Of a DNA stretch of 64,000 nt, positions 1,723-8,054 are shown one piece after another. The stretch is from Escherichia phage RB69. The position numbers and the translations under genes were made by a program. The notes under the pieces were generated by a model that saw only the letters and a program-made list of their open reading frames with translations, was not told the origin of the DNA and did no database searches. The stretch is from the sequence record NC_004928.1. One strand, given 5' to 3'. The stretch's first letter is position 1; every line of letters starts with the position of its first letter.

Positions 1723-2181
1723 TTATAGGAGGGTAGTGAGCACCTTATATAATGATTTGCCCATTACATATTCCCATTGAGAAGGTTTAATTAAAGCGAA
1801 TGCATCAAATTCAGGAATCTGTCGTCCGTCTGGGAATGTATGATAGGAATTACAAACACTGTTTCTGAATTGCTCGTGCTCTACAGGGATGGTATATAGG
1901 AACAGATGAATATTCTTATTGTCTGAGTAATGATGTTCACCTAGGTCTTTCAGGAAGGCAGGGTCATATTGTGTAAACCCAGTTTCTTCTTCGCATTCAC
2001 GAATAGCGGCTTCAATAGGAGATTCGCCAGGTTCGACACGGCCTTTAGGAATATCCCACCGATGAGCTAATGCACCTTTAGGACGAGAACCAGTTACACG
2101 CCCCATGAATAATTCTTTATCTTCGGTAAGGAAAATAATACCGGCTGATAGTTCTTTCACTTTATTTTTCTTACTCATCAT
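1723..2181 (-). CDS. nudE: NUDIX hydrolase
   Basis: Nudix box GRVEPGESPIEAAIRECEEETGF; position downstream of e as T4 e.1/nudE. Confidence 0.85.
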   Translation of the reverse strand: MMSKKNKVKELSAGIIFLTEDKELFMGRVTGSRPKGALAHRWDIPKGRVEPGESPIEAAIRECEEETGFTQYDPAFLKDLGEHHYSDNKNIHLFLYTIPVEHEQFRNSVCNSYHTFPDGRQIPEFDAFALIKPSQWEYVMGKSLYKVLTTLL

Positions 2182-2422
2182 CTCGGTCCCATGATTTGGC
2201 CATTAATTCGGACATAAATTCTTCAATGCGCGTTTCTTTAGATGGACTTTCACTATTAGAGACCGCAAGTTTGTAATCTGCAATAGGACGGAACAAATCA
2301 AGGTCCATATCAAGGTCGTCTTTGATTTGTTCTTCAGGTACATCTGTATCATACGTATACAGATAACTATCAAGTGATTCTGATTTAACGTAAATTGCTA
2401 TACTCATCTCAAATTCCTGCAT
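2171..2422 (-). CDS. hypothetical acidic protein
   Basis: 83-aa ORF; its start codon lies inside the ECR codons of the upstream gene. Confidence 0.5.
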   Translation of the reverse strand: MQEFEMSIAIYVKSESLDSYLYTYDTDVPEEQIKDDLDMDLDLFRPIADYKLAVSNSESPSKETRIEEFMSELMAKSWDRDDE

Positions 2423-2901
2423 TCGGTAATAAAACGTTCAACTTCATTATTCTTGGCCTTTATCTTGTCTTTACGTTCCTGTAAACTACTTTTAACAAGA
2501 TTAATAATGATGCCTACAGTACCTCCACCAATAATACCACCAATAATACTTACAATAGTAGATGCTAATAAGATAGCGATAATATCTGGTACAGCAAAGG
2601 CACTTACTTTAGTACTAAAAAACCATACCGACGGTACAAATATAATCCATCCTGTTATCCATTGGCACTTATTGAAAAACTTTTCAAGCTCAGCTTGGGT
2701 TGTTCGTATTACTTCATCGATAGGTTGATATCCATTAATGTATCTGTTCACGATAATACCTGCTGGTTTGTCGATTTTAAATGCTTGACAATGGTGTTTC
2801 ACTAAGTAGGATGGACATCCTGTCCAATCTACTGAATAGTATGAAATACCTTCGTCGCCACCGTCCATGTTTGACCAGTGAATTTTCTGTATCATTACCA
2901 A
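2404..2901 (-). CDS. hypothetical membrane protein, C-terminal FIxECR motif
   Basis: 165 aa; hydrophobic segments WIIFVPSVWFF / IIAILLASTIVSIIGGIIGGG; ends ERFITECRNLR. Confidence 0.55.
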   Translation of the reverse strand: MVMIQKIHWSNMDGGDEGISYYSVDWTGCPSYLVKHHCQAFKIDKPAGIIVNRYINGYQPIDEVIRTTQAELEKFFNKCQWITGWIIFVPSVWFFSTKVSAFAVPDIIAILLASTIVSIIGGIIGGGTVGIIINLVKSSLQERKDKIKAKNNEVERFITECRNLR

Positions 2902-3581
2902 CCTTCCATAGGGAATTCCAGATAAACTTGAGCGTTGACACGAATTTCATTGGTAATCTTTTTAACTCGGTCCGTATTACGAGATACACGTCCGAACCAA
3001 CGCCATCCATTACTAATTGCACGAGAACCAGTGTGCCATGTTTGCCAATCAAACTGAAGAAGAGTACGGTCTGGAGCTTCCCATTTCTCTAGTTCGCCTT
3101 TTTCGATTTTTTCGAGGACTTCTTTGTGCCACTGGCGATAGATAAGTTCGCCATCAGGAATCTGACTGAACTCTGCAGTTCCTGTTGCAAAATGAGTAGG
3201 ACACACATCAGCGTTAACAAGACCAAGAATATGTTCAGACAAATAGCGAGGATTGTCATAGTCAGGTGGTCCTGCAGTAATAAAGTGTTGACCAACCGGA
3301 ATATCTGGGCGTGGTACATCGTCATGGTGATAACCTGGGATAGCAGGATACCAACCAGGCATCAGCATGTGGACTCGTGAATCAAATACTACATCCGAGT
3401 CTTTCCAATCGTCAGGGAGATTTTGGATAAAGCTACGAGTAATTGGACCGCCGTTATCAAAAGCAAAATTCAAATCGCAATTAAAGAACATAGGCTCGTT
3501 TTTAATCTGGTCGTTTTTAATCGCATGAGCAAAACCACCTACTGCACGAGCTTGACTATTAAACACTTTAGAACTATTCAT
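2895..3581 (-). CDS. hypothetical protein
   Basis: 228-aa ORF in the minus-strand early block; no motif recognised. Confidence 0.55.
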   Translation of the reverse strand: MNSSKVFNSQARAVGGFAHAIKNDQIKNEPMFFNCDLNFAFDNGGPITRSFIQNLPDDWKDSDVVFDSRVHMLMPGWYPAIPGYHHDDVPRPDIPVGQHFITAGPPDYDNPRYLSEHILGLVNADVCPTHFATGTAEFSQIPDGELIYRQWHKEVLEKIEKGELEKWEAPDRTLLQFDWQTWHTGSRAISNGWRWFGRVSRNTDRVKKITNEIRVNAQVYLEFPMEGW

Positions 3582-3582
3582 A

Positions 3583-3888
3583 TTATTTTCCTCGACATTC
3601 TTTAATGAAATTTTCTAGATTGGTAGATTCAATAGCTTTTTTACGAGCTTCTGCGTGTTCTTCTTCAGACAATTTACGTTTATAATTGACCCAGACATTA
3701 TGGTCGAAACTAGTCGTGGCATATAATAACAATGCTCCAACGAATAGCAAAAACGGCGATAAGAATACAAAACCAGGAACACCATCCATATCGTAAGCCT
3801 TTTGTAATACTGCAACAGAAAGGGCTGCGTAAAAAAGTGATGCAAATATTGTTAAAAGACCAATTCGGTTGGTTTCGCCTAATTTCAT
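3583..3888 (-). CDS. hypothetical membrane protein, C-terminal FIxECR motif
   Basis: 101 aa, two predicted TM helices, ends ENFIKECRGK; early promoter just upstream. Confidence 0.6.
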   Translation of the reverse strand: MKLGETNRIGLLTIFASLFYAALSVAVLQKAYDMDGVPGFVFLSPFLLFVGALLLYATTSFDHNVWVNYKRKLSEEEHAEARKKAIESTNLENFIKECRGK

Positions 3889-3915
3889 AATATTCTCCTC
3901 ATGTTTAATAGGACT

Positions 3916-3945
3916 ACTATAATATAGTCCTATAATTGTGTAAAC
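3916..3945 (-). promoter_or_regulatory. sigma70-type early promoter inside inverted repeat (GTTTAC ... TATAGT)
   Basis: Minus strand GTTTACACAATTATAGGACTATATTATAGT; flanked by ataggact / agtcctat inverted repeat. Confidence 0.6.
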
Positions 3946-3957
3946 AGTTTTGCGAAA

Positions 3958-4914
3958 TTATTTGAAAGGTTTTACCATATGGAAATTTTGTTTGAAACGT
4001 TTGACGTAATCGTCATGTCCTAAACTTTGGTACATACTTACTACTTTGCTGTAGTTTTCCCAGGCATACTCACGGAACCAACCAGAGGTGATGCTTGTAC
4101 AGACTTTTTCCAATGCCATCATAAAACTGGCTTCAGGGTTAATTTTAAAGTCATTAGGAATTTGAGAACGTTCTAATGCTAGTACACATGATTCTTCGTA
4201 TACACCAGCCAATTTGACCATTTCTGGTAATGATTCGAACTTCTCGCGTGAGGTCATGACTTCAGAGCCGTCTTTCATATAAAATGTATACGCTGGACGG
4301 TCTGTTAGTGCAATGGCTTCATGAATAGTATCATGGTCATATGTATAGATGTCATCTTTAAAGAACGCACTTTTAGAAGTGTCAAGAACCGGGTGAGCAT
4401 AGTTCAAGGTTTCTTTCTGGCGTTTCAGCATAATTTCAGTAAGTTCATCGTTCAGTGTAACACCTTTACCACGAAGATACTGAATATGGTTCATAGTCTT
4501 TAAAAAGAATGGATTATTTTTCTTGAAACGATGAGACATCTTAATTGCAAGACATATCTCAGGAGTTGCCCAGTAAAACCCGTTCAAACGGTCTTTAGTC
4601 AAATTTTTCTTGGCGTATTTTAAAAGGTCATAAGAAGACGTGAAATCTTCAGGAGTGAGTTCACCGATTAATTCACGGACATTAGTGATTGCCGGAACAA
4701 TATATGCTTCAAAATGAGTTTCGCGTCCATTATGGAAGCATTTGAAAACTTGGACATCAGGGTTATCTTGGTGAACATATACACCCATCATTTGATTTTT
4801 GAATGCATTCCAAGAACATTGGTCCGCAATAAAGTCCCAATCGCTATTTTTGATAGCGCTAGAATCAATAAGACCGTGATAGTGAAGTGCACGAGAACCA
4901 ATAACCAACATCAT
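3958..4914 (-). CDS. hypothetical protein, possible nucleotidyltransferase fold
   Basis: 318 aa; N-terminal LVIGSRALHYHGLIDSSAIKNSDWDFIA resembles the hG[GS]...[DE]h[DE]h signature of pol-beta-type NTases (spacing longer than canonical). Confidence 0.6.
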   Translation of the reverse strand: MMLVIGSRALHYHGLIDSSAIKNSDWDFIADQCSWNAFKNQMMGVYVHQDNPDVQVFKCFHNGRETHFEAYIVPAITNVRELIGELTPEDFTSSYDLLKYAKKNLTKDRLNGFYWATPEICLAIKMSHRFKKNNPFFLKTMNHIQYLRGKGVTLNDELTEIMLKRQKETLNYAHPVLDTSKSAFFKDDIYTYDHDTIHEAIALTDRPAYTFYMKDGSEVMTSREKFESLPEMVKLAGVYEESCVLALERSQIPNDFKINPEASFMMALEKVCTSITSGWFREYAWENYSKVVSMYQSLGHDDYVKRFKQNFHMVKPFK

Positions 4915-4942
4915 AATATTTTCCTCTGATTAATTCATTAAC

Positions 4943-5194
4943 TTAAATTTCACGACATGCGATATCATATTCATCCCAGAGGTCATCGTGTGAAGCCTCT
5001 ACCAATGGAACGATTGTGCCGTTTATGTCTTCATTATAAGGGCAAATTGTACAGTGCGCATCTTCGAATCGGATGCCTTTGTGTTCAGATTTTTTATAAC
5101 GCATATCGAATATCTTTGCAAACTTTTCACGAGTAATGGTTTTAGCAACCACTTTGGTTCCGATACTTTCGTAATAAATCATTGTGGACTCCAT
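4943..5194 (-). CDS. hypothetical protein
   Basis: 83-aa ORF downstream of early promoter at 5211-5240. Confidence 0.5.
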   Translation of the reverse strand: MESTMIYYESIGTKVVAKTITREKFAKIFDMRYKKSEHKGIRFEDAHCTICPYNEDINGTIVPLVEASHDDLWDEYDIACREI

Positions 5195-5210
5195 TTAATT
5201 TGATAGGACT

Positions 5211-5240
5211 ACTATAACATAGCCCTATCTTGTTGTAAAC
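5211..5240 (-). promoter_or_regulatory. sigma70-type early promoter inside inverted repeat
   Basis: Minus strand GTTTAC(18)TATAGT within the tgataggactactataacatagccctatc element. Confidence 0.6.
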
Positions 5241-5244
5241 TGTT

Positions 5245-5442
5245 TTAGCAAGAATAACTAGATGATACCCAGCCTTGAACAGTAATACTATTATTTGATA
5301 ACGAGATTGCGTCCTGGAGATTCAGACCTGCGTTATCTTCAATCCATAATGTAACTTCTTCGCGTTCTTCTGTTGCAATTTGGAACAGGTTTTCCAGAGC
5401 AGCTACTGCCGTACGTACAGCACAATCTAATTCGCGAGACAT
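5245..5442 (-). CDS. small hypothetical protein, GWVxSSxxC C-terminal family
   Basis: 65 aa ending QGWVSSSYSC. Confidence 0.5.
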   Translation of the reverse strand: MSRELDCAVRTAVAALENLFQIATEEREEVTLWIEDNAGLNLQDAISLSNNSITVQGWVSSSYSC

Positions 5443-5451
5443 ATTGTTTCC

Positions 5452-5724
5452 TTAGCAAGTGTGAGAAGATGCGACCCAACCACCAGTTTCGAGGCTCAGG
5501 TTGTAGTCGTATTGGTAAACGTCAGCCCATTCAGCATAGCCGTTTTTTGTACAACGTTCAAGATCGGCTTTAAGATGTCCGGGTGAATGATAGGTTCCAC
5601 CCATACCATAAGCTGGGTACAAGTCGAATGTTGTGTTTTGTTTATCAGCAATTTCTTTGGCAGCCTCAATAGCTGCATAGATTTTTGCTACAGCTTCAGT
5701 CAGTTCGGTTTGTTCTTTAGACAT
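5452..5724 (-). CDS. small hypothetical protein, GWVxSSxxC C-terminal family
   Basis: 90 aa ending GGWVASSHTC; stop followed by GGAAACAAT and next ATG. Confidence 0.55.
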   Translation of the reverse strand: MSKEQTELTEAVAKIYAAIEAAKEIADKQNTTFDLYPAYGMGGTYHSPGHLKADLERCTKNGYAEWADVYQYDYNLSLETGGWVASSHTC

Positions 5725-5733
5725 AATGATTCC

Positions 5734-5835
5734 TTAGCACAACGCAGGAGACGAAACCCAAGCACCTTCAGTAATAACGTAACCATTACCTTCACGCTTA
5801 ACATCGCCACCATTATTTTCAATTTCATTTTTCAT
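5734..5835 (-). CDS. very small hypothetical protein (33 aa), GWVxSSxxC family
   Basis: Not in ORF track (below 60 aa); hand translation MKNEIENNGGDVKREGNGYVITEGAWVSSPALC; shares C-terminal motif and stop-RBS junction with neighbours. Confidence 0.35.
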   Translation of the reverse strand: MKNEIENNGGDVKREGNGYVITEGAWVSSPALC

Positions 5836-6040
5836 ACCACTGGGATACGATTTCACCCTTAGGATAATAAGTACGACCGCTACCATAATCACCTACAGAA
5901 AATGATACGGCATATTGGTCTGCGATCTTTGTTGCTTCTTCTTCGATACGTTCAGCTTGATTCAGAAGTTTATAAATTGCATCTGAAGCGGATTTGGCAT
6001 CATTAAATTCTGGTACTTTAATTTCGATAATCTTACTCAT
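5825..6040 (-). CDS. hypothetical protein
   Basis: 71-aa ORF; AAGGA RBS upstream of ATG. Confidence 0.5.
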   Translation of the reverse strand: MSKIIEIKVPEFNDAKSASDAIYKLLNQAERIEEEATKIADQYAVSFSVGDYGSGRTYYPKGEIVSQWYEK

Positions 6041-6396
6041 TTTCTACATTCCTTAATAAAGTTTTCTATTGTTTCATTTTCACGTTTAGCTAGGAGTTCA
6101 TTATAACTAATCATTTGAGAAGCGTAAACCTTTTTATTTTTCTTGTTATGGTTTATAAAATCGTAGTAAAAATAGACTACAGTACAAAATGATGCGATGG
6201 ATGCAAAGGCTTGGGTATACCGTAAGTCCTGCCATTGGTCTGTGAATCCGCCAGTGTTTCCTATAAATCCTAACACAACGCCGTCAATAAGAAATCCAAC
6301 TAATCCAAAGGCAAATCCCATGCCAATACTCATAATAAAAATTAGAATGTTCTCACCAAGAGAAGGCCATACGGTTAAGAGTTGAGGCTTTTGCAT
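6037..6396 (-). CDS. hypothetical membrane protein, C-terminal FIxECR motif
   Basis: 119 aa; hydrophobic N-terminal half; ends ENFIKECRK. Confidence 0.55.
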   Translation of the reverse strand: MQKPQLLTVWPSLGENILIFIMSIGMGFAFGLVGFLIDGVVLGFIGNTGGFTDQWQDLRYTQAFASIASFCTVVYFYYDFINHNKKNKKVYASQMISYNELLAKRENETIENFIKECRK

Positions 6397-6770
6397 CTTA
6401 TTTCCTTAACGAATTCCATAGCTTCTTCATATTCATACTTTTTAACAGCTTCATCATACTGAGCTTGGGCTTTTGCGCACTGAACTTTCCACTCACGAAC
6501 TCGAGCTCTGTGATGACGGCCTTGGTGCCAATATCCTACCCAATTAATAGGCATTAATAAAAACGGTACAATAAGTGGTGCGACGAACATTAATGAAAAT
6601 GCTGCATCAGACGATATAACTTCACTAGAATCTAAAACAGCTCCTATAATCATAAAGATTAAAAATGCTAAAGCTAAAATAGGGCCAAATAGTACTTCAT
6701 TAGGAATTAATTTACGTTTGTATTCGTATGCCCAGGGCTTACTTGGCATGTATAGGGTTGGCTTTGACAT
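6375..6770 (-). CDS. hypothetical membrane protein (EFVKEIRC C-terminal motif)
   Basis: Track ORF 6375..6800; start moved to internal ATG at 6770 (start uncertain); two hydrophobic segments. Confidence 0.5.
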   Translation of the reverse strand: MSKPTLYMPSKPWAYEYKRKLIPNEVLFGPILALAFLIFMIIGAVLDSSEVISSDAAFSLMFVAPLIVPFLLMPINWVGYWHQGRHHRARVREWKVQCAKAQAQYDEAVKKYEYEEAMEFVKEIRCKSLNS

Positions 6771-7341
6771 ATTCTCTACATTCCATAATAAATTGCTCAA
6801 GGATTAAATTGTTAGTGAAATTAGGACTAACAACCATAGTTTCATAAAGCGCATCAATAGCACTTAAAGCATCAACTCTTTTAAGCAAAGGCTTGCCTTC
6901 ATACATAGTTTCAGAATCGATGATTAACGTAAAGTAATATTTTTTATTATCGACTAGAACTTCTGTATCGATATAAAACATATTAGACCTCAGAAGCTTA
7001 TCTCTAAAACCATAATAATCTTCAGAGCGTTCGCTGATATATTCCCATTCAGTGTTTAAACAACAAACAGACCATGTAGGAGCAACGAAATCAGTGAATC
7101 TAATATCATGGTCTGCAACTAGTTTAGCAATAGCTCCGATATCATGAATCATAATACCTGGGGCTAATAAAGATTTTCTGCTATGGCTAGCCGTTTTCTC
7201 GGTGGTCTCATAAGAAGACGACCAGTACCATTTACGTCCGGTTGCAACATATCGTAATGAATCAACTAAAGACGTAGGTGGATTTACCTTATCTCGGAAC
7301 TCTTCAAACATTGAGTCAATATCATTATTTTGGTTTCGCAT
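6739..7341 (-). CDS. hypothetical protein with FIMECR motif near C-terminus
   Basis: Track ORF 6739..7362; ATG at 7341 follows a terminator hairpin and AAGGAG RBS. Confidence 0.55.
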   Translation of the reverse strand: MRNQNNDIDSMFEEFRDKVNPPTSLVDSLRYVATGRKWYWSSSYETTEKTASHSRKSLLAPGIMIHDIGAIAKLVADHDIRFTDFVAPTWSVCCLNTEWEYISERSEDYYGFRDKLLRSNMFYIDTEVLVDNKKYYFTLIIDSETMYEGKPLLKRVDALSAIDALYETMVVSPNFTNNLILEQFIMECREYVKANPIHAK

Positions 7342-7356
7342 GTTAACTCCTTTATT

Positions 7357-7384
7357 ATCCAAAAGGAGGACCGGAGTCCTCCGT
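7357..7384 (-). terminator. hairpin plus T-tract terminator
   Basis: Minus strand GGAGGACTCCGGTCCTCC followed by TTTTGG, directly after the 7391..7984 gene. Confidence 0.6.
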
Positions 7385-7390
7385 ATTATT

Positions 7391-7984
7391 TTATTTCAAA
7401 GAGTTAATATATTCTTGTACATCAGCAGAAGTGGTTTCGACACCAGCTGGAGTGCCATTGAACGTTTCAACACGAGTCAGAGTGTCTTCGATATCAACCT
7501 TAGTCAGTGCAGCGATTTCAATTACATCATCGGCCGTAGAGATACCAAGGGCATTGGCTGCTCGAGTTTCACGAATGTATTCGAGTTTGATTGCCAGATT
7601 CTGACGAGCATCATCAAGTTCAACCACCTTACGAGCAATTTCAATTCGCATAGCGGCATACCCGTCAGCTTTTGTATTAAGTTGTTCGGCAGTTCGACGA
7701 TACAGAAGACCAAGCTTAGCATGCATGGTAACATCTTGTCCTTCAGCCAAGAGCTTACGAATTTCACGTTCCTTAGAAGCGGCTTGCTTGTTCTTTTCAT
7801 TAACAAGTTCGCGAATACGTTTTTCTTCATTAATAGATTTAACAGAAGCCGTTTTTAGTTCTTTGATTTGGGTAATCAACTTATCTGCAGCTGCGTTATA
7901 CTGTTCTTCGACAGTCAGATTTTTAGCCATAGCAGTACCCAGTTTAGTGCGGATGAATTCAACAAGTTTCTTCAGTGTGTTCAT
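7391..7984 (-). CDS. coiled-coil protein, possibly PspA/IM30-like
   Basis: About 197 aa, predominantly helical with charged heptad-like pattern; start at ATG 7984 (track start 7999 is a TTG); family assignment is an unverified impression. Confidence 0.55.
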
Positions 7985-8025: not shown

Positions 8026-8054
8026 ATTATACTCTGCTCTCAAGAGTTTGTAAA
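8026..8054 (-). promoter_or_regulatory. sigma70 promoter (TTTACA, 17-nt spacer, TATAAT) with inverted repeat around -10
   Basis: Minus strand TTTACAAACTCTTGAGAGCAGAGTATAAT; GAGAGCA / TGCTCTC inverted repeat flanks the -10. Confidence 0.65.

Follow-up and report, generated by a model that had tools for sequence, protein, structure and literature searches.

A C-terminal motif, conserved as protein and possibly a docking site, in early proteins encoded downstream of the probably PspA/Vipp1-like e.6 of Escherichia phage RB69

Why should five early genes of one phage end in nearly the same few residues? The question is raised by the minus strand of Escherichia phage RB69, in a 64,000-nucleotide stretch of sequence record NC_004928.1 (the window), where a sequence-only reading had picked out open reading frames (ORFs) at 2404..2901, 3583..3888, 6037..6396, 6375..6770 and 6739..7341 for the shared ending F-I-x-E-C-R, and had left it between a paralogous protein family and a conserved junction sequence dragged along with shuffled gene cassettes. 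In brief, we find that the ending is conserved as protein and lies downstream of the gene e.6, and we tentatively propose that it may be a docking helix.

A C-terminal motif conserved at the protein level

All five minus-strand ORFs were confirmed from their sequences with the C-termini reported for them, and each carries F-[IV]-x-x-[C/I]-R no more than 20 residues from its C-terminus. In comparison with T4 (NC_000866), 2404-2895 corresponds to e.2, 6037-6396 to e.3, 6375-6770 to e.4 and 6739-7341 to e.5, while 3583-3888 has no T4 counterpart and is an extra paralogue. The reading of the first gene stood as to its ORF and its ending, but ATG at 2895 is a likelier start than the TTG at 2901 given for it. 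Similarly, the tail motif is real, but the Glu of F-I-x-E-C-R is only the commonest residue at a variable position and lies outside the conserved core, and the fourth gene has Ile in the Cys position; with that substitution, all five have the motif within about 30 residues of the C-terminus, which is how we delimit the group. Of the 84 non-overlapping ORFs in the window, 4 have the strict form F[IV]..CR among their last 30 residues, compared to 0.0046 expected from composition (Poisson P ~2e-11), and none has it in its body. A six-frame scan of the 64 kb yielded only two further matches, each in a short ORF that is probably not a gene, and the same scan of T4 bases 1-50000 yielded zero.

Pfam scans of the five motif proteins returned nothing, and a PHROGs search returned only families of unknown function (2203/9798/2330/2604/2607, a group without a name). 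The genes are annotated as hypothetical only, literature searches on e.2-e.6 or on a phage PspA retrieved nothing relevant, and we found no description of the family, in agreement with the earlier impression that it is not a described T4 family.

For the comparison of codons with nucleotides, five genera were sampled through annotated phage records together with 34 IMG/VR loci anchored on the well-conserved neighbour e.6, giving 138 tail instances from about 45 T4-like loci, 89 of them distinct at the DNA level. Across these 89 distinct instances, conservation tracks the encoded amino acids, not the nucleotides. The Arg is written with all six of its codons (AGA 28, CGT 26, AGG 17, CGC 9, CGA 8, CGG 1), the Phe with TTT in 60 and TTC in 29, the Cys with TGC in 40 and TGT in 37, and the Ile with ATT, ATC or ATA; third codon positions carry little information, and the 30 nucleotides (nt) downstream of the motif carry at most 0.8 bit per position. 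Two identical octapeptides in the window, both ENFIKECR, differ in four codons, every change being synonymous. When 13 orthologues of e.5 at 13-19% identity are aligned, there are four invariant columns only, and three of them are F184, C188 and R189. The motif is under selection as protein. With the amino acids conserved and the synonymous sites free, the idea of a conserved junction sequence of shuffled cassettes is refuted, the flanking DNA being unconserved as well.

A broader version of that idea, in which an element of the nucleotide sequence, be it a recombination junction, a ribosome-binding region or another RNA signal, moves with shuffled cassettes, draws on the fact that the Shine-Dalgarno sequence (SD) of the next gene overlaps the motif codons, with the next ATG at -1 to +28 nt; in the window the ATGs lie -1 to +10 nt past the Arg codon, and the closeness of the motif codons to the next start had been noticed correctly. 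Nevertheless, the codon usage above speaks against it, no frame-independent nucleotide conservation that includes synonymous sites was found, and genuine cassettes of the promoter-stem-loop (PeSL) type are located elsewhere (3916-3944 and 5211-5239). The SD also takes different places according to spacing. When the Arg codon is at most 5 nt from the next ATG, the SD lies within the two x-x codons (AAGGAA, GAGGAA, AAGGAG or AAAGGA) in 23/33 cases, as in the e.3-like gene, where the AAGGAA of the K-E codons serves the next gene; at 6-12 nt it is made of the Arg codon and the codon that follows (AGG-A, AGA-GG or CGA-GG) in 24/28; and at 13-28 nt it falls past the motif in 19/21, the Arg then being mostly CGT. 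Because the position of the SD slides with spacing, there is no fixed RNA element, and the simpler candidate that the motif is the SD itself was rejected on the same ground. We regard a nucleotide-level element as having practically no chance of being the explanation, and it is the only rival considered here that is excluded.

What the junctions do display is dual coding with no nucleotide motif: the SD of the next gene shapes which residues fill the variable x-x positions and which codon is used for the Arg. This would be a secondary layer of the mechanism proposed below, with the x-x and Arg codons doubling as the SD of a next gene that would be translationally coupled. The locus makes a clean teaching case, in that an invariant Arg switches codon family when it also forms the next SD.

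The shape of the motif was described from 49 non-redundant tails anchored on the Phe, so that features found in them are independent of the search pattern. The conserved core is Phi(-3)-[ED](-2)-x-F-[IV]-x-x-C-R, where position -3 is hydrophobic (Phi) in 44/49 tails and position -2 is acidic in 28/49; position +2 is often Lys and position +6 often basic, and no conservation was seen among these tails upstream of -5. With a spacing of -3, 0, +1, +4 and +5, the Phi, F, I/V, C and R share one face of a helix, and the AlphaFold2 (AF2) model of e.5 places the motif inside a helix (178-194). In 12/89 instances I, V or S stands in place of the Cys, and in remote clades Ala does, so we take the Cys to be a small hydrophobic residue and not a reactive thiol; a thiol, metal or catalytic role was rejected as a general explanation for this reason. 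A prohead-protease site (I-x-E) was also considered and rejected, since the Glu is not conserved outside Mosigvirus.

Hydropathy and the positive-inside rule bear out the earlier statement that four of the five proteins have transmembrane (TM) helices: two TM helices with N-in/C-in topology are predicted in the e.2-, e.3- and e.4-like proteins and the extra paralogue, and zero in the e.5-like protein. For the e.3-like protein, the first TM segment alone passes the hydropathy threshold, and the second (AFASIASFCTVVYFYYDFI) was read by eye and by analogy with orthologues. The periplasmic loops of the four hairpin proteins hold 0-1 K/R and their tails 7-17, which puts the motif, by topology prediction, in the cytoplasm.

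The other possibility raised for the window, a paralogous protein family, is only partly right: sharing is demonstrable for the C-terminal module, and the hairpins may or may not have a common ancestor. The 130 full-length motif proteins fall into about 19 BLAST families of differing architecture, including several kinds of two-TM hairpin, the soluble e.5 family of about 200 aa and soluble proteins of about 95-110 aa. When profiles of the full-length families are compared with each other (hhalign), many are linked at 70-95% probability. After trimming from F-4 onward, the five window families fall below 5% mutually, although TM segments are poor material for such a test; among the families as a whole, some weak links outlast trimming, fam0-fam11 at 51% and fam2-fam14 at 45%. 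As the links between the window families vanish upon tail trimming, the part that is demonstrably shared is the C-terminal module only. One could still see in the tail a relic of descent, a structural cap without a common partner on genes from one ancestor, and both the two-TM-plus-tail architecture common to four window proteins and the weak links that outlast trimming would suit that explanation. It is hard to reconcile, however, with the motif holding three of the four invariant columns of e.5 and thus its best-conserved positions, with the presence of the same motif on soluble proteins whose N-terminal parts are unrelated, and with the concerted switches of variant within genomes described below, and we consider it very improbable.

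Confinement to the neighbourhood of e.6 and a proposed role

In the sampled loci, 0/628 ORFs upstream of e.6, 99/624 ORFs within 6.5 kb downstream of it and 0/132 ORFs farther downstream have the strict motif in their last 30 aa, and it is found at 0 of ~139,000 non-C-terminal positions in the same loci. The first gene past e.6 bears the strict motif in 37/47 loci, with exceptions that are mostly fragments or variants; the loci come from related phages, and the events behind these counts are hence not independent. The motif genes of the window conform to this arrangement: they are on the strand of e.6 and follow it at distances of 50 bp to 5 kb.

The motif had been recommended for a search of other T4-like genomes, and it is present there in phages of several genera: F-I-x-x-C-R is retained in phages of Escherichia, Klebsiella, Enterobacter, Erwinia, Edwardsiella and Aeromonas. 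Each Tevenvirinae genome encodes two to six motif proteins, and Erwinia phage IT22 has four motif genes. Homologue searches with the motif proteins returned 3, 9 and 6 proteins, and a tail-only profile search, which collected few candidates, retrieved nothing beyond T4-like phages. The e.6-e.5 pair persists in differing genomic contexts, among them those of metagenomic phages. In Aeromonas phage Aes012 (Tulanevirus), the pair is flanked by nrdH and gp55.2 and the tail is MFVDYCRR, and Citrobacter phage Margaery (Pseudotevenvirus) has an e.6 that is 35% identical and the tail KFIHSCKK.

In phages whose e.6 is 22-28% identical, the tail takes another form. There, I-[IVL]-x-x-A-[RK] is carried by several unrelated proteins encoded downstream of e.6, namely ILANAR, IVHRAR, IVFITR and IIARAK in locus L048, ILARAR and IIKHAR in L055, IVEQAR and IIEQAR in L044, IVTKAR in L046, IINNAR in L049 and IIETAK in L056. 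Other remote loci have Y-I-x-x-C-R or F-I-x-x-C-K, as in Margaery: YIMQCR in L053, YIHECR, YLDRCK and FIDYCK in L054, and FIDECK in L052. The variant is uniform within each remote genome, and the e.6 sequences that go with the I-V-x-x-A-R group form a cluster, being closer to one another. That unrelated proteins of one genome switch tails together is what co-evolution with one shared partner predicts. In a further remote metagenomic phage (L051), a thymidylate synthase gene (5662-6594) stands between e.6 and the tail-bearing genes, and the tails read F-V-x-x-C-[YF], with no Arg.

What, then, is e.6? Single-sequence searches of e.5 and e.6 against the Protein Data Bank (PDB) found nothing significant, and the link to PspA/Vipp1 becomes visible with profiles only, not from the window sequence alone. 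A 14-member e.6 profile gave weak Vipp1 matches, collinear from residue 1. A search of 1.84 billion representatives then yielded 37 e.6 homologues, down to 22% identity, and with a 28-member profile (A7) the top 8 matches among PDB sequences were all Vipp1/PspA (E 6e-5 to 2.5e-3, residues 1-139 versus 1-139). Two remote homologues (P0044 and P0045) have a precomputed match to PspA_IM30 (PF04012), and one orthologue scores 4e-4. The AF2 model of e.6, a confident one (pLDDT 83), has an N-terminal helix alpha0 (2-22) and a long hairpin (25-80, 86-145), and the top 12 Foldseek matches to this model are all Vipp1/PspA. Both the profile match to members of PF04012 and its alpha0 plus alpha1-alpha2/3 coiled-coil hairpin are thus found in e.6, which very probably belongs to the PspA/Vipp1 kind (ESCRT-III superfamily). 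The gene occurs in 1108 phage records; in the records seen, it is apparently labelled "hypothetical" or "host specificity protein" and never PspA/Vipp1-like, and a literature search found no mention of it as such.

As a separate observation, the N-terminal helix of e.6 contains L-V-E-F-I-R-T-K at residues 3-10 (7955-7978), resembling the first half of the motif (Phi-E-x-F-I). In L054, Tyr replaces Phe in both e.6 (VEYIR) and the tail (EYIHECR), and L053 breaks this pattern.

Partly by analogy with PspA-family systems, the reading that we favour, as one that falls just short of probable, is that the tail may be a cytoplasmic helical docking motif, acting at the protein level, that plugs otherwise unrelated early proteins into the PspA/Vipp1-like e.6. 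The docking pattern, closing a long charged tail, would be Phi(-3)-[E/D](-2)-x-F-[I/V]-x-x-C-R with basic residues after it. The two-TM hairpins (e.2, e.3, e.4 and the extra paralogue) would present the tail helix on a charged stalk of 30-55 residues and, in the manner of PspC or LiaI, could anchor or regulate a polymer of the PspA kind on the cytoplasmic side of the inner membrane. Soluble motif proteins such as e.5 would be plugged in through the same motif as further partners of e.6. Both the motif's role as a binding site and the identity of e.6 as the most likely partner are inferred here.

If the partner were instead a conserved host protein, for example host PspA, PspF or another cytoplasmic or inner-membrane factor, e.6 would be a mere neighbour. 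Early T4 genes commonly target host proteins, and F-I-x-x-C-R is the same across phages of six host genera whose core proteins are conserved, both of which fit such a partner. The strict confinement of the motif to the region downstream of e.6, the co-inheritance of e.6 and e.5 across rearranged contexts, and the tracking of e.6 clades by motif variants all point the other way, and we judge a host partner unlikely. It is also conceivable that the motif helices bind each other, forming a hetero-oligomeric helical bundle of hairpins and soluble proteins with no need for e.6. The number of motif proteins per Tevenvirinae genome, the uniform variant within a genome and the amphipathic hydrophobic face, on which the acidic -2 and basic +5 residues could form inter-helix salt bridges, are all compatible with a bundle. 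However, Aes012 and Margaery have one motif protein only near e.6, and the 49 tails have no heptad pattern upstream of -5, making this arrangement rather improbable in our estimation. Finally, a motif near the C-terminus of unrelated cytoplasmic proteins might be a turnover or quality-control tag, read by a host or phage protease or chaperone and timing the removal of early proteins. Anything from 0 to 15 residues separates the motif from the free C-terminus, unlike in known C-terminal degrons, the motif is polar/amphipathic and not non-polar, and a tag would leave the link to e.6 unexplained; we give this explanation very little credence.

Several observations weigh against docking to e.6 as well. 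Confinement to e.6 was counted in loci that hold e.6, synteny with e.6 could be mere co-residence in a hyperplastic region, and common descent along the phage tree may account for part of the concerted variants. Simple hydrophobic packing leaves the strong preference for Cys (about 85%) unaccounted for. As for e.6 itself, the window protein is below the Pfam threshold for PspA_IM30 (PF04012), and the e.6 profile aligns weakly by hhalign with single sequences of PspA or Vipp1, at 27-41% probability. The phage two-TM proteins have no detected homology to PspB/PspC (no Pfam match at E <= 0.1), and the tails of E. coli PspB/PspC, unlike those of the phage hairpins, do not have F-I-x-x-C-R. Additionally, T4 tolerates a truncated e.2 (see below), so that this member, at least, is dispensable in the laboratory.

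The occurrence of motif tails only downstream of a PspA/Vipp1-like e.6 suggests that a PspA system with plug-in partners may be encoded by the phage itself. In its full form, this proposal is of a Psp-like system for membrane maintenance or remodelling that belongs to the phage, in which an ESCRT-III-superfamily e.6 would recognise shuffled adaptors and clients via one portable C-terminal helix (F-I-x-x-C-R, or I-V-x-x-A-R in other clades), perhaps keeping the inner membrane energised during infection and lysis inhibition, when host psp induction is shut off. We consider it possible but somewhat doubtful. T4 induces the host psp operon weakly (PMC12795941), and this is circumstantially in line with a phage that brings its own version. 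If the proposal is true, it would open a way to study how the host's inner membrane and proton-motive force are kept intact by large lytic phages up to lysis.

Gene map of the locus

The window comes from a T4-like phage of the RB69/HX01 type (genus Mosigvirus), and between 2300 and 7500 it is 97% identical to Escherichia phage mogra. The gene order on the minus strand runs from a tRNA region through e.8/e.7-like genes and e.6 (7391-7984) to the five motif genes, which are interleaved with others, and beyond them to nudE (1723-2181), the e lysozyme gene (1200-1700) and denV (450-875). The e.6-like gene (7391..7984, minus strand) encodes 197 aa resembling PspA/Vipp1 (IM30, ESCRT-III superfamily). 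An early-promoter-like site, TTTACA-17-TATAAT, lies upstream of it (8026..8054, minus strand; 11/12 matches, a consensus match only). Between e.6 and e.5 there is a GC-rich terminator-like hairpin (7365..7382, minus strand), GGAGGACTCCGGTCCTCC followed by TTTT, and a terminator is annotated at the equivalent e.6/e.5 junction of Citrobacter phage Margaery; the hairpin may act as an attenuator setting the ratio of e.6 to its partners.

The e.5-like gene (6739..7341, minus strand), always found directly downstream of e.6, encodes a predicted soluble protein of 200 aa with the C-terminal end LEQFIMECREYVKANPIHAK and motif codons at 6775..6792. The e.4-like protein (6375..6770, minus strand; 131 aa, phrog_2604) has two predicted TM helices and a 56-residue tail ending AMEFVKEIRCKSLNS, with motif codons at 6396..6413 and Ile in the Cys position (FVKEIR), and the e.3-like protein (6037..6396, minus strand; 119 aa, phrog_2330) has a predicted TM hairpin and a tail ending IENFIKECRK (motif codons 6043..6060). 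The extra paralogue (3583..3888, minus strand; 101 aa), assigned to phrog_9798 with a weak match to phrog_2203, has two predicted TM helices and a 46-residue charged tail ending LENFIKECRGK (motif codons 3592..3609). In the e.2-like protein (2404..2895, minus strand; 163 aa), an N-terminal soluble domain precedes two predicted TM helices and a cytoplasmic tail ending VERFITECRNLR (motif codons 2416..2433); it matches phrog_2203, "membrane protein", and its motif is retained by orthologues of five genera. T4 e.2 itself (L005, NC_000866 67490-67960) is truncated to 102 aa by a frameshift where close relatives have an intact 162-aa gene, and the C-terminal remnant ...NNFITECRK is still legible in the DNA, out of frame. 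Next to the e.2-like gene, the ORF at 2171-2422 (minus strand) probably starts at 2407 (MSIAIY...), with an ATGA overlap with the e.2-like stop; this start coincides with the beginning of the PHROG alignment and has AGGA 7 nt upstream.

Among the interleaved minus-strand genes without the motif, 2895-3581 encodes a 228-aa protein of phrog_1843, for which one related record includes "2OG-Fe(II) oxygenase" in its annotation under the match, and 3958-4914 encodes a 318-aa DUF7277/DUF7275 protein. An early-promoter-like site (3916..3944, minus strand) lies within a PeSL-like hairpin cassette upstream of the 3583..3888 gene. This cassette and the one at 5211-5239 (minus strand) are near-identical, each with GTTTACA-N17-TATAGT within a TAGGACTA...TAGTCCTA stem, and in this they are similar to the PeSL elements found beside shuffled early genes in T4-type phages. 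Located between the motif genes there is also a second tail-defined family of tandem small genes (5245-5442, 5452-5724 and 5734-5892, minus strand; also in L001-L003), with 3-5 copies in every genus examined. These proteins end in G-W-V-S-S-x-x-x-C with Cys as the last residue, the endings in the window being GWVSSSYSC*, GGWVASSHTC* and GAWVSSPALC*.

Comparison with known systems

The arrangement is similar to that of the Psp operon, where a PspA-family gene is followed by small inner-membrane proteins, as e.6 is followed by predicted N-in/C-in hairpins with cytoplasmic C-terminal helices. PspC is polytopic, and its cytoplasmic C-terminal domain binds PspA (PMC5596341). As predicted, the topology of the phage hairpins (N-in/C-in, with a K/R-rich tail) would suit an inner-membrane protein with a cytoplasmic C-terminal domain of this kind. 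In contrast to the Psp system, the phage would have up to six interchangeable partners, including soluble ones, and no regulator of the PspF type would be involved. In Bacillus subtilis, as in other PspA-anchor pairs, the small membrane protein LiaI, encoded beside the PspA homologue LiaH, recruits the latter to the membrane. LiaI-LiaH resembles e.6 with its hairpins but has a single anchor and belongs to a cellular stress regulon, whereas the phage set is defined by a motif and consists of early genes. The e.6 protein matches Vipp1/IM30 and the ESCRT-III superfamily by profile and by predicted fold (alpha0 and the alpha1-alpha2/3 hairpin); it is shorter than Vipp1/PspA, at 197 aa, and its residues 150-197 have no counterpart in the match.

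The motif itself is comparable to short helical docking motifs (SLiMs) such as the MIM motifs, by which ESCRT-III binds MIT domains, and which likewise span about 10 residues on one helix face near the C-terminus of unrelated carriers. The MIM motif, however, sits on the ESCRT-III subunit, and the phage motif on the putative partners. A different kind of likeness is to the PeSL cassettes of T4-type phages, reportedly described by Arbiol et al. in 2010, which also recur at the borders of genes within this hyperplastic region; these are conserved as DNA and intergenic, whereas the phage motif is part of coding sequence, and its conservation is that of a protein.

Even in T4, the reference among lytic phages, e.2-e.6 have been without a function since the genome was annotated; all of them now come under one testable hypothesis. 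If the tail binds e.6, this would be the first phage-encoded PspA system, and the tail would be a natural portable peptide tag that recruits proteins to an ESCRT-III-like polymer. Such a hub-and-plug-in architecture would be undescribed for any PspA/Vipp1 system. As judged from sequence, the motif group appears to be undescribed and to fit the known scheme of a PspA-family protein with small membrane partners, in what would be a new, modular and phage-encoded form.

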